Source: a virus (taxonomy: Duplodnaviria > Heunggongvirae > Uroviricota > Caudoviricetes). Taken from it: a stretch of 6,466 bases of DNA. The stretch's first letter is position 1. Every line of letters starts with the position of its first letter. Shown here piece by piece: positions 3,260 to 6,430 of the stretch. The stretch lies in IMG/VR virus record IMGVR_UViG_2740892019_000001. One strand, given 5' to 3'. A program made the position numbers and the translations under genes. The notes beneath the pieces were generated by a model that ran no database searches, was not told where the DNA came from, and saw nothing but the letters and a program-made list of their open reading frames with translations.

Positions 3260-4559
3260 TCTCCCGCATATTGCCAGCATGGCTTTTAATGAGCCGCTGA
3301 TGCTTGAACCCGCCTATGCGCGGGTTTTCTTTTGTGCGCTTGCAGGCCAGCTTGGGATCAGCCGCCTGACGGATGCGGTGTCCGGTGACAGCCTGACTGC
3401 CGGAGAGGCACCCGCGACGCTGGCGTTATCCGGTGATGGTGACGGACCACGACAGGCCCGCAGTTATCAGGTCATGAACGGCATCGCCGTGCTGCCGGTG
3501 TCCGGCACGCTGGTCAGCCGGACGCGGGCGCTGCAGCCGTATTCGGGGATGACCGGTTACAACGGCATTATCGCCCGTCTGCAACAGGCTGCCAGCGACC
3601 CGATGGTGGACGGCATTCTGCTGGATATGGACACGCCCGGCGGGATGGTGGCGGGAGCATTTGACTGCGCTGACATCATCGCCCGTGTGCGTGACATAAA
3701 ACCGGTATGGGCGCTGGCCAACGACATGAACTGCAGTGCAGGTCAGCTGCTTGCCAGCGCCGCCTCCCGGCGTCTGGTCACGCAGACCGCCCGGACAGGC
3801 TCCATCGGCGTCATGATGGCTCACAGTAATTACGGTGCTGCGCTGGAGAAACAGGGCGTGGAAATCACGCTGATTTACAGCGGCAGCCATAAGGTGGATG
3901 GCAACCCCTACAGCCATCTTCCGGATGACGTCCGGGAGACACTGCAATCCCGGATGGACGCAACCCGCCAGATGTTTGCGCAGAAAGTGTCGGCATATAC
4001 CGGCCTGTCTGTGCAGGCTGTGCTGGATACCGAGGCTGCAGTGTACAGCGGTCAGGAGGCCATTGATGCCGGACTGGCTGATGAACTTGTCAACAGCACC
4101 GATGCGATCACCGTTATGCGTGATGCACTGGATGCACGTAAATCCCGTCTCTCAGGAGGGCGAATGACCAAAGAGACTCAATCAACAGCTGTTTCAGCCA
4201 CTGCTTCGCAGGCTGACGTTACTGACGTGGTGCCAGCGACGGAGGGTGAAAACGCCAGCACGGCGCAGCCGGACGTGAACGCGCAGATCACTGCAGCGGT
4301 TGCGGCAGAAAACAGCCGCATTATGGGGATACTCAACTGTGAGGAGGCTCACGGACGCGAAGAACAGGCACGCGTGCTGGCAGAAACCCCCGGTATGACC
4401 GTGGAAACGGCCCGCCGCATTCTGGCTGCAGCACCACAGAGTGCACAGGCGCGCAGTGACACTGCGCTGGATCGTCTGATGCAGGGGGCACCGGCACCGC
4501 TGGCTGCAGGTAACCCGGCATCTGATGCCGTTAACGATTTGCTGAACACACCAGTGTAA
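3240..4559 (+). CDS. C: Head maturation protease / scaffold gpC (439 aa; S49 SppA-like serine peptidase family)
   Basis: GTG start at 3240, preceded by GAGGAGGAG at 3227-3235, overlapping the last 20 nt of B in a different frame. Product MTAELRNLPHIASMAFNEPLML... is recognised as lambda gpC. The ORF-track start at 3126 is an upstream in-frame extension lying inside B. Stop TAA at 4557-4559. Confidence 0.9.
3954..4559 (+). CDS. Nu3: Scaffolding protein Nu3 (201 aa), translated from an internal in-frame ATG of C and sharing the C-terminal third of gpC
   Basis: In-frame ATG at 3954 (MDATRQMFAQKVSAYTGLS...) in the same frame as C (3240 and 3954 are both 0 mod 3). This matches the nested C/Nu3 arrangement known for lambda. 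No strong SD is visible immediately upstream, so the start assignment rests on homology and recalled annotation rather than sequence signals. Confidence 0.68.
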   Translation: MDATRQMFAQKVSAYTGLSVQAVLDTEAAVYSGQEAIDAGLADELVNSTDAITVMRDALDARKSRLSGGRMTKETQSTAVSATASQADVTDVVPATEGENASTAQPDVNAQITAAVAAENSRIMGILNCEEAHGREEQARVLAETPGMTVETARRILAAAPQSAQARSDTALDRLMQGAPAPLAAGNPASDAVNDLLNTPV

Positions 4560-4568
4560 GGGATGTTT

Positions 4569-4901
4569 ATGACGAGCAAAGAAACCTTTACCCATAACCA
4601 GCCGCTGGGCAACAGTGACCCGGCTCATACCGCAACCGCGCCCGGCGGATTGAGTGCGAAAGCGCCTGCAATGACCCCGCTGATGCTGGACACCTCCACC
4701 CGTAAGCTGGTTGCGTGGGATGGCACCACCGACGGTGCTGCTGTTGGCATTCTTGCGGTTGCTGCTGACCAGACCAGCACCACGCTGACGTTCTACAAGT
4801 CCGGCACGTTCCGTTATGAGGATGTGCTCTGGCCGGAGGCTGCCAGCGACGAGACGAAAAAACGGACCGCGTTTGCCGGAACGGCAATCAGCATCGTTTA
4901 A
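4569..4901 (+). CDS. D: Head decoration protein gpD (110 aa)
   Basis: ATG at 4569 with AAGGGA SD at 4558-4563 (5-nt spacer). Product MTSKETFTH...GTAISIV is recognised as lambda gpD. The ORF-track start at 4563 (MFM...) abuts the SD and is unlikely to be used. Stop TAA at 4899-4901. Confidence 0.93.
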
Positions 4902-4918
4902 TCTTCCCCTTCATCAAC

Positions 4919-4943
4919 AAAGGCCGCCTGTGCGGCTTTTTTT
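4919..4943 (+). terminator. Candidate intrinsic-terminator-like hairpin in the D-E intergenic region
   Basis: 5-bp GC-rich stem GCCGC (4923-4927) / GCGGC (4932-4936) with loop CUGU, extendable by flanking A-U and G-U pairs (AAAG...UUUU), followed directly by a 7-nt T run (4937-4943). It lies 18 nt after the D stop and 14 nt before the E start. Confidence 0.5.
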
Positions 4944-4956
4944 ACGGGATTTTTTT

Positions 4957-5982
4957 ATGTCGATGTACACAACCGCCCAGCTGCTGGCGGCAAATGAGCA
5001 GAAATTTAAGTTTGATCCGCTGTTTCTGCGTCTCTTTTTCCGTGAAAGCTATCCCTTCACCACGGAGAAAGTCTATCTCTCACAAATTCCGGGACTGGTA
5101 AACATGGCGCTGTACGTTTCGCCGATTGTTTCCGGTGAGGTTATCCGCTCCCGTGGCGGCTCCACCTCCGAATTTACGCCGGGATATGTCAAGCCGAAGC
5201 ATGAGGTGAATCCGCAGATGACCCTGCGTCGCCTGCCGGATGAAGATCCGCAGAATCTGGCGGACCCGGCTTACCGCCGCCGTCGCATCATCATGCAGAA
5301 CATGCGTGACGAAGAGCTGGCCATTGCTCAGGTCGAAGAGATGCAGGCAGTTTCTGCCGTGCTTAAGGGCAAATACACCATGACCGGTGAAGCCTTCGAT
5401 CCGGTTGAGGTGGATATGGGCCGCAGTGCCGCGAACAACATCACACAGTCCGGTGGCACGGAGTGGAGCAAGCGTGACAAGTCCACGTATGACCCGACCG
5501 ACGATATCGAAGCCTATGCGCTGAACGCCAGCGGTGTGATTGATATCATCGTGTTTGATCCGAAAGGCTGGGCGCTGTTCCGTTCCTTCAAAGCCGTCAA
5601 GGAGAAGCTGGATACCCGTCGCGGCTCTCATTCCGAGCTGGAGACAGCGGTAAAAGACCTGGGCAAAGCGGTGTCCTATAAGGGGATGTATGGCGATGTG
5701 GCCATCGTCGTGTATTCCGGACAGTACGTGGAAAACGGCGTCAAAAAGAACTTCCTGCCGGACAACACGATGGTGCTGGGTAACACTCATGCACGCGGTC
5801 TGCGCACCTATGGCTGTATTCAGGATGCGGATGCATTGAGTGAGGGTATTAATGCGTCTCCCCGTTATCCGAAAAACTGGAAGACATCCGGAGATCCGGC
5901 GCGAGAGTTCACCATGATTCAGTCAGCACCGCTGATGCTGCTGGCTGACCCTGATGAGTTCGTGTCCGTACAACTGGCGTAA
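4957..5982 (+). CDS. E: Major capsid protein gpE (341 aa)
   Basis: ATG at 4957; product MSMYTTAQLLAANEQKFKFDPLFLRLFFRESYPFTTEKVYLSQIPGLVNMALYVSP...VSVQLA is recognised as the lambda major capsid protein. The ORF-track start at 4816 is an upstream in-frame extension running through the D 3' end and the terminator hairpin. Stop TAA at 5980-5982. Confidence 0.96.
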   Translation: MSMYTTAQLLAANEQKFKFDPLFLRLFFRESYPFTTEKVYLSQIPGLVNMALYVSPIVSGEVIRSRGGSTSEFTPGYVKPKHEVNPQMTLRRLPDEDPQNLADPAYRRRRIIMQNMRDEELAIAQVEEMQAVSAVLKGKYTMTGEAFDPVEVDMGRSAANNITQSGGTEWSKRDKSTYDPTDDIEAYALNASGVIDIIVFDPKGWALFRSFKAVKEKLDTRRGSHSELETAVKDLGKAVSYKGMYGDVAIVVYSGQYVENGVKKNFLPDNTMVLGNTHARGLRTYGCIQDADALSEGINASPRYPKNWKTSGDPAREFTMIQSAPLMLLADPDEFVSVQLA

Positions 5983-5984
5983 TC

Positions 5985-6010
5985 ATGGCCCTTCGGGGCC
6001 ATTTTCTCTC
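5985..6010 (+). terminator. Candidate stable hairpin (UUCG tetraloop) with U-rich tail in the E-FI intergenic region
   Basis: Perfect 7-bp stem ATGGCCC (5985-5991) / GGGCCAT (5996-6002) with loop TTCG (5992-5995), followed by TTTCTCTC (6003-6010). It begins 3 nt after the E stop. Confidence 0.5.
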
Positions 6011-6023
6011 TGTGGAGGAGTCC

Positions 6024-6419
6024 ATGACGAAAGATGAACTGATTGCCCGTCTCCGGTCGCTGGGTGAGCAACTGAACCGTGATGTCAGCCTGACGGGGAC
6101 GAAAGAAGAACTGGCGCTCCGTGTGGCAGAGCTGGAAGAGGAGCTTGATGACACGGATGACACTGCCGGTCAGGACACCCCTCTCAGCCCGGAAAATGTG
6201 CTGACCGGGCATGAAAATGAGGTTGTATCAGCGCAGCCGGATACCGTGACTGATACGGCTGATCTGGTCACGGTTGTGGCACTGGTGACGCTGCATACTG
6301 ATGCACTTCACGCCACGCGGGATGAGGCTGTGGCATTTGTGCTGCCGGGAACGGCGTTCCGTGTCTCTGCCGGTGTGGCAGCTGAAATGACAGAGCGCGG
6401 CCTGGCCAGAATGCAATAA
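6024..6419 (+). CDS. FI: DNA-packaging / head assembly protein gpFI (131 aa)
   Basis: ATG at 6024 with GGAGGAG SD at 6014-6020. Product MTKDELIARLRSLGEQLNRDVSLTGTKEELALRVAEL... is recognised as lambda gpFI. The ORF-track start at 5985 lies inside the intergenic hairpin stem and is rejected. Stop TAA at 6417-6419. Confidence 0.9.
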   Translation: MTKDELIARLRSLGEQLNRDVSLTGTKEELALRVAELEEELDDTDDTAGQDTPLSPENVLTGHENEVVSAQPDTVTDTADLVTVVALVTLHTDALHATRDEAVAFVLPGTAFRVSAGVAAEMTERGLARMQ

Positions 6420-6430
6420 CGGGAGGCGCT

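Follow-up and report, generated by a model that had tools for sequence, protein, structure and literature searches.

Intrinsic terminators occur within antiterminated phage late operons, where their role has been openly described as unknown (PMC8022706). We analyzed one such element, a GC-rich hairpin followed by seven uridines at positions 4919-4943 of a 6,466-nucleotide (nt) stretch of DNA from a virus of the Caudoviricetes (IMG/VR record IMGVR_UViG_2740892019_000001); the whole stretch is referred to below as the window. The hairpin lies between gene D, which encodes the head decoration protein, and gene E, which encodes the major capsid protein. That it is a selected terminator-type hairpin is close to certain.

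The closest described element is the annotated D-E terminator of lambda-type phages, which is the same element. Judged by its sequence, the site in the window is the already known hairpin at lambda nt 6097-6121, and in lambda, HK629 and 434 every base of the hairpin, of the two T tracts at this junction and of the E start is the same. The HK629 record (JQ182735) carries a regulatory feature labeled rho-independent terminator at D-E (5911-5931), and the 434 record (OL657226) carries the same annotation at 6100-6120. The N15 record (AF064539) lists a stem_loop at 5980-6004, between gene 7 (D) and gene 8 (E), as a "putative rho-indep. transcription terminator", and a second such putative-terminator stem_loop right after gene 8. 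The N15 D-E terminator is a homologue that shares the stem and has another loop. In the classical lambda record, J02459, no terminator feature is entered at D-E. The annotations in HK629, 434 and N15 are predictions. They were made independently of a preliminary description of this DNA and agree with its terminator call; the lambda identity and the existing annotation are points that the description had not recognized.

Several other systems resemble this one. Lambda tR', the 6S RNA terminator past pR', is likewise an intrinsic terminator; it halts unmodified polymerase and lets Q-loaded polymerase through (PMC9388147). It differs in being an experimentally characterized regulatory switch at the head of the operon; the D-E stem is shorter and its activity is predicted. 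The P22-like phage L has a predicted rho-independent terminator, likewise uncharacterized, after the procapsid module of an antiterminated late operon with a single promoter (PMC8022706), although its head-gene family and position are unrelated. Internal terminators combined with a promoter-loaded antitermination factor form the same logic in conjugation operons, as in the pLS20 conAn system (PMC8955417; PMC8191782). That system differs in residing on Gram-positive plasmids, in its antitermination machinery and in that its function was experimentally tested. Finally, Clostridium cellulolyticum cip-cel has, as at this locus, stable intergenic hairpins downstream of the highest-demand subunits; processing sites and differential half-lives are reported to have been measured there, whereas the D-E hairpin is known from sequence (PMC4423207). 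Among intrinsic terminators that lie within antiterminated late operons of phages, the D-E element is an ordinary case.

Anatomy of the D-E hairpin

Read directly, positions 4919-4940 of the plus strand are AAAGGCCGC-CTGT-GCGGCTTTT, and continuing to 4943 adds TTT. The core stem consists of five G-C pairs (G4923-C4927 with G4932-C4936). A lower stem (4919-4922 with 4937-4940) contributes one G.U and three A-U pairs by using the first four uridines of the tract, bringing the total to 9 base pairs (bp). The features of the junction, all on the plus strand, are:

4569-4901, plus strand: gene D, head decoration protein, 110 amino acids, with its TAA stop at 4899-4901 (PF02924, E = 3.9e-22; lambda 5747-6079)
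4902-4918, plus strand: 5′ spacer, rich in C, U and A and free of G, as read from the sequence
4919-4940, plus strand: RNA hairpin, with core stem 4923-4927/4932-4936 (GCCGC/GCGGC) and loop CUGU at 4928-4931
4937-4943, plus strand: U7 tract (terminator tail), abutting C4936 of the core stem; tail score nT = 4.73
4946-4949, plus strand: Shine-Dalgarno (SD) sequence of E, GGGA; the counterpart of 4947-4949 is marked as ribosome-binding site in the 434 record
4950-4956, plus strand: second T7 tract, filling the spacer between the E SD and ATG, as read from the sequence
4957-5982, plus strand: gene E, major capsid protein, 341 amino acids (PF03864, E = 5.9e-72; lambda 6135-7160)

The D stop (TAA 4899-4901) and the E start (ATG 4957-4959) are separated by 55 nt, and in the 434 record the ribosome_binding_site lies 8-10 nt ahead of the E ATG.

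Folding of 4915-4945 gave -12.3 kcal/mol (z = -3.51), a value equaled by 1 of 200 dinucleotide shuffles, and the complete spacer (4902-4960) folded at -14.9 kcal/mol. The five G-C core pairs alone yield -7.7 kcal/mol, or -9.3 kcal/mol with the G.U pair; such a core is at the weak end of the range of terminator stems. The preliminary description had placed a terminator-like structure, a GC-rich stem-loop plus seven Ts, at 4919-4943 between decoration and major capsid genes, and had set -8 kcal/mol as the threshold for a stable fold. Anatomy, folding and the PF02924 and PF03864 matches of the two neighbors agree with this, and the full hairpin passes the threshold; the core alone is borderline.

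Intrinsic terminators combine a GC-rich stem of about 5-14 bp and a loop of 3-8 nt in a stable RNA, as found at 4919-4940, with a directly adjoining 3′ U tract of about 7-9 nt, as found in the T7 run at 4937-4943. The D-E hairpin is also non-coding and clear of a ribosome at the D stop, its core lying 21 nt past the last D-stop base; a terminating ribosome can melt a hairpin that falls within its footprint. Positions 4919-4943 have canonical intrinsic-terminator anatomy.

We compared the window with chance expectation using a strict pattern of five consecutive G-C pairs, a loop of 3-8 nt and at least six Ts within the next seven positions. The window contains two such sites (the D-E hairpin and 3309-3324) versus 0.004 per dinucleotide-shuffled window, and 4 of 1000 shuffled windows had any. 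There are two runs of seven or more Ts and one A8 run, compared to 0.39 such runs expected over both strands. The A8 run is within the coding sequence of gene A, at 1251-1258. With a discriminant d that sums hairpin energy and T-tail, of the d'Aubenton-Carafa type (modern energies, which differ from the original ones, were used, so values are indicative only), the D-E hairpin scored +22.2 in the sense direction versus -23.6 in the antisense direction. A general terminator scan listed a weak reading on the minus strand and left the plus-strand D-E site unlisted; the strict-pattern scan recovers the plus-strand site. In our reading, the scan probably omitted it through maximal stem extension, which would consume four of the Ts.

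Two other assignments were rejected. A bidirectional terminator is disfavored by the minus-strand tail, CTTTGTTGAT, which is poor (nT 1.98, d = -23.6) and not conserved. The only Rfam match over the site, to the family Leu_leader (RF00512) at 4848-4943, scored 29.8 bits versus a gathering score of 50, and the site does not belong to this family. The match runs up to the terminator hairpin, with its first two thirds lying over D coding sequence; because it is below the gathering score, we dismiss it as a resemblance between terminators.

Conservation of the stem and U tract

To follow the junction across relatives, we assembled 45 genome loci and 80 viral contigs from a gpD profile search, plus N15 and phi80. 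The hairpin with at least five Ts was kept in 122 of the 128 first loci. Five loci end at contig edges, and the remaining one, with a single stem mismatch, is a lambda contaminant contig of 1.5x coverage. We aligned 22 distinct junctions, whose gpD is 55-99% identical to that of the window, and calculated the mean pairwise identity of each segment across them:

Core stem, 3′ arm: 1.00
Core stem, 5′ arm: 0.97
U tract: 0.94
ACGGGA: 0.79
Neighboring coding sequence: 0.78-0.79
SD-to-ATG spacer: 0.69
Lower stem, 5′ side: 0.55
5′ spacer: 0.42
Loop: 0.31

The loop has at least 10 different sequences among these junctions. The T tract varies in length alone (T6-T8). The 5′ spacer, measured without the 4-nt lower stem, ranges from 15 to 38 nt; it holds the hairpin core at least 19 nt from the D stop codon, and the core stem starts at least 19 nt past that stop in 22 of 22 relatives. 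The arrangement U7-ACGGGA-N7-ATG keeps the distance from U tract to start codon at 13 nt throughout the clade. The second T7 tract is present in the lambda group and one Erwinia prophage only, and is AAAATCT in N15, phi80 and other enterobacterial prophages.

When pairs were counted, 97.5% of cells were paired. Four pairs are invariant, three vary on one side, and in two, which belong to the lower stem, both partners are exchanged so that A-U becomes G-C. In the core, the substitutions observed are all C-to-U changes that leave a G.U pair; they occur in two Trabulsiella prophages (L036 and L037) and one viral contig (L293). The structure that the preliminary description called terminator-like is conserved as a structure across junctions, with stem and U tract fixed and the loop free. 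This pattern in the alignment indicates that the stem and U tract are under selection, with loop and flanks drifting.

Some loci in the sample stand apart. In one viral contig (L067; IMGVR_UViG_2529292725_000005, 1780-1920), D, the hairpin and the T tract are identical to the 434 type, after which the sequence abruptly changes to ATGGAATTTTTTTATGTCTGTATATAC; the position of the divergence suggests a mosaic recombination joint right at the terminator. In Kosakonia sp. S29 (L047), the E homologue is broken after 91 codons and followed by unrelated AT-rich sequence, so that this locus may be a degraded prophage or an insertion. Short, low-coverage contigs with lambda-D-like genes (94-99% identical; L004, L008-L015, L017-L029, L043, L045 and L048) occur in non-enteric assemblies, among them an Akkermansia metagenome-assembled genome and assemblies of Pseudoxanthomonas, Bradyrhizobium, Kitasatospora, Paenibacillus, Shewanella and Leeuwenhoekiella. 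These are almost certainly lambda DNA contamination.

Outside the lambda/N15/phi80 clade, other lineages with gpD and gpE were compared at the same junction. A gpE profile search returned mostly lambda-type loci and added two hairpin types. The sequences following D are:

21-like phages: CAGGCCAC-loop-GTGGCCTG, without a U tract
EcoM-783R5-like: GCCGCC-UCCG-GGCGG followed by U7
Vibrio ST2-1pr: a 10-bp stem followed by UUUUCGUU
Viral contig L232: CCGCC-UCCG-GGCGG followed by UUUUGUUGUG
Viral contig L255: GGCUGCC-AAUU-GGCGGCC followed by UUUUUAUU
Aeromonas PhAER-1: overlapping D and E; no hairpin
Alteromonas P24: D-E gap of 12 nt; no hairpin
EcoM-783R5 relative L230: D-E gap of 17 nt; no hairpin

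Five of six hairpin types have a U-rich tail and a positive discriminant (+18 to +37).

Operon context and companion hairpins

The window, a lambda-type head module, matches lambda-type phages at 97.8% identity along its full 6466 nt, which correspond to 1178-7643 of phage 2G7b, and the gene order A-W-B-C-D-E-FI was confirmed. Upstream of D is gene C, an S49 protease, and downstream of E is FI. The D protein has 97-99% amino acid identity to lambda D homologues, and the 601 nt around the D-E site are 98.2% identical to lambda; within the junction, the only differences from lambda are at five positions of the 5′ spacer (4902-4918). FI (6024-6419) is one codon (3 nt) shorter than that of lambda, with its stop at 6417-6419 rather than the expected 6420-6422, and the window is 6466 nt long versus 6469 nt in the DE3, DN1 and HK630 matches.

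A consensus scan found no sigma-70-like promoter on the plus strand anywhere in the window, although weak or atypical promoters could escape such a scan. As no promoter-like site lies between the hairpin and E, E is reached only by read-through, in agreement with the preliminary view that the hairpin sits within a late operon that must be read through; the roles suggested in that description were marked there as speculative. A terminator-promoter pair was rejected, as there is no plus-strand promoter candidate downstream of the hairpin. The Q gene, the qut/QBE site and pR', all of them outside the window, occur in the closely related lambda and 434 genomes. From the lambda map, we estimate that the D-E site is about 10 kilobases (kb) into the late transcript.

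In the late operon of 434 (L231, 1-21300), 16 of 21 gene junctions overlap or are no more than 15 nt apart. Gaps of at least 25 nt occur at D-E (55 nt), E-FI (41 nt), I-J (60 nt), J-lom (69 nt) and lom-stf (64 nt). There is a GC-rich hairpin in all five, four of which carry a terminator annotation. The I-J hairpin is ACCGCC-UCCG-GGCGGU, and its CCGCC-UCCG-GGCGG core is the D-E core of the unrelated EcoM-783R5 lineage.

The companion of the D-E hairpin follows E:

5985-6002, plus strand: hairpin AUGGCCC-UUCG-GGGCCAU, then UUUCUCUCU; 3 nt past the E stop, with a UUCG tetraloop

This hairpin forms the 3′ boundary of the E cistron (-12.3 kcal/mol, d = +7.6). Its GGCCC/GGGCC core is retained at nearly all diverged E-FI junctions, and the outer pair co-varies, being A-U in lambda and G-C in N15 and phi80. 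It is a putative rho-independent terminator in the N15 record and unannotated in 434 and HK629.

The sole other strict hairpin-plus-T site in the window is inside gene C, 47 nt past the B stop:

3306-3327, plus strand: intragenic hairpin AACCCGC-CUAUGC-GCGGGUU, then UUCUUUUG, within gene C codons 21-30

We compared 18 distinct diverged gene C sequences: that of the window and those of lambda, N15, phi80 and enterobacterial prophages. In the codons of the stem and U tract (CCC GCC .. GCG CGG GTT TTC TTT), the third position is 100% invariant; variation is seen in the Tyr codon of the loop and in flanking four-fold codons, with a third-position identity of 0.33-0.9. Such constraint on synonymous sites suggests a functional RNA or DNA element lying over the coding sequence. 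The hairpin is annotated neither in the 434 record nor in the examined parts of the HK629 and N15 records.

Possible roles of the D-E hairpin

The explanation we favor, and consider probable, is that the D-E hairpin is a conditional intrinsic terminator, ignored by Q-loaded RNA polymerase and obeyed by unmodified polymerase, that insulates E and also stabilizes the 3′ end of D. The role as insulator and stabilizer is the part of this explanation that we infer. A polymerase lacking Q would pause on the U tract, the hairpin would form in the exit channel, and the transcript would be released at about 4941-4945. With unmodified polymerase released there, stray transcription, from spurious starts in the head genes or read-in within a lysogen, would stop short of E and the approximately 15 kb behind it. 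A polymerase loaded with Q at pR' would carry a nozzle on its exit channel that prevents hairpin formation, such that the site would be ignored and late transcription would continue. In the read-through late mRNA, the hairpin would fold behind the polymerase, too far downstream to be covered by a ribosome at the D stop, and would probably act as a 3′-exonuclease barrier for the D cistron, with the partner hairpin doing the same for E.

The components of this model have precedents. The Q nozzle on the RNA exit channel blocks terminator hairpins, and pause and termination sites are processively ignored (PMC9388147). The use of internal terminators with processive antitermination against spurious transcription is an established idea (PMC8955417), and for the late operons of P22 and L, either partial termination or a stop for non-antiterminated transcription has been proposed (PMC8022706).

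Several observations weigh against a conditional terminator. Covariation within the lambda clade is weak, with four of nine pairs never varying and two showing double changes, because the core stem is almost invariant. The structural evidence therefore rests on the contrast between stem and loop and on the non-identical hairpins elsewhere, not on covariation. The core is short (5 bp, -7.7 kcal/mol), so termination by unmodified polymerase may be only partial. Translation rather than termination could account for the conservation of the U tract, which lies 13 nt ahead of the E start. The 21-like D-E hairpin has a discriminant of -39.7, and the Aeromonas and Alteromonas lineages and one EcoM-783R5 relative have no hairpin; given a hairpin without a U tract and lineages without a gap, termination is not universally required at D-E. 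Finally, literature searches, including searches with the hairpin sequence, recovered no 3′-end, in vitro termination or mutant data for the site, only a cloning primer, with the main lambda expression papers outside the coverage of the searches.

A possible but doubtful alternative is that the hairpin is an mRNA processing and stability element and that termination is incidental. Late mRNA would be cut by endonucleases, hairpins after D and E would block 3′-to-5′ exonucleases, and the segments for the two most abundant head proteins (about 405-420 copies of each per capsid) would outlive their neighbors. The hairpins do lie exactly after D and E, at the sole head-gene junctions longer than 15 nt, and gpD is present at 405-420 copies per capsid (PMC6784203). 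It is also the hairpin, not the U tract, that is common across lineages, since the 21-like D-E junction and the E-FI junctions of lambda, N15 and phi80 are without good U tracts. Intergenic stem-loops reported to set stoichiometry (PMC4423207) and terminator hairpins reported to stabilize upstream mRNA (PMC11696848) provide precedents. However, the U tract at D-E is conserved at 0.94, near the level of the stem, and a pure exonuclease barrier needs none. Similar hairpins at I-J, J-lom and lom-stf are not behind high-copy genes, and a barrier after D would protect all upstream low-copy genes alike unless there were upstream cleavage.

We consider it unlikely that the element serves mainly in the initiation of E translation, with the U7 tract or tracts forming a ribosome pad that binds S1 and the hairpin keeping the E start open. 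This idea would account for the fixed 13-nt distance from U tract to start across the clade, and the SD of E, the most heavily made late protein, is a weak GGGA. Pairing of the SD is also slightly lower with natural than with shuffled spacers (0.67 vs 0.80), compatible with selection for an open ribosome-binding site. Yet the second U tract is AAAAUCU in most relatives, an invariant GC stem abutting a U tract suits a terminator rather than an S1 platform, and hairpins followed by U recur at J-lom and lom-stf, where the downstream ribosome-binding contexts differ. In the minimum-free-energy fold of the window spacer, the CCC after the D stop pairs with the GGG of the E SD around the hairpin. 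Translational coupling of E to D through this helix was rejected, as natural spacers pair no better than shuffled ones (mean 0.67 vs 0.80, 22 sequences).

It is very unlikely that the hairpin acts as a leaky attenuator, cutting off a constant share of late transcription in the presence of Q as well and so adjusting how strongly upstream genes are expressed relative to downstream ones. Partial termination is one suggested role of terminators within late operons (PMC8022706), and other phages have leaky terminators with a documented role in tuning expression (PMC9163698). An attenuator here would act in the wrong direction, lowering E, for which demand is highest, relative to the low-copy A, W, B and C upstream, and Q-loaded complexes processively ignore termination sites (PMC9388147).

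Slighter still is the probability that the element has no RNA function and is a DNA recombination linker between head modules, or chance. In its favor, the divergence of the 434-type contig L067 right after the T tract points to a possible mosaic joint there. Chance is excluded by the shuffles (0.004 strict sites per window). A linker would be expected to keep its loop too, but the loop is free (0.31) and the changes in the stem preserve pairing; moreover, unrelated stems at the same junction elsewhere favor structure over sequence.

We give almost no weight to a tandem device, made up of the hairpin, U7, ACGGGA and the second U7, in which the first U7 would form a standard terminator that Q-loaded polymerase passes and the second U7 would pause or terminate Q-loaded polymerase in the lambda group: at the place of this second tract, N15, phi80 and most relatives have AAAAUCU, and halting transcription just ahead of E would carry a cost. 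The idea derives from the hypothetical "Q-dependent terminator" of Yin et al., in which a hairpin, a spacer that fits the nozzle extension and a U tract of 7-9 nt are predicted to be able to stop Q-loaded polymerase (PMC9388147). At this junction, the hairpin end (4936) and the second U7 (4950-4956) are 13 nt apart. If true, the device would be the first natural Q-dependent pause site or terminator, sited at the E ribosome-binding site, and could synchronize Q-modified transcription with ribosome loading on E.

As the annotated lambda D-E terminator-type hairpin, the element that we favor as a conditional terminator is nothing new in kind. Constructs for lambda display and engineering in which the 3′ end of D is changed should retain the hairpin or redesign it deliberately, as it lies 13 nt ahead of the E start. 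The comparative picture, with a fixed stem and U tract, recurring non-identical hairpins at the same junction and a hairpin in each sizeable gap of the late operon, frames the question of what terminators do within such operons. The D-E site offers a clean, genetically tractable test of insulation versus the stabilization of mRNA segments.

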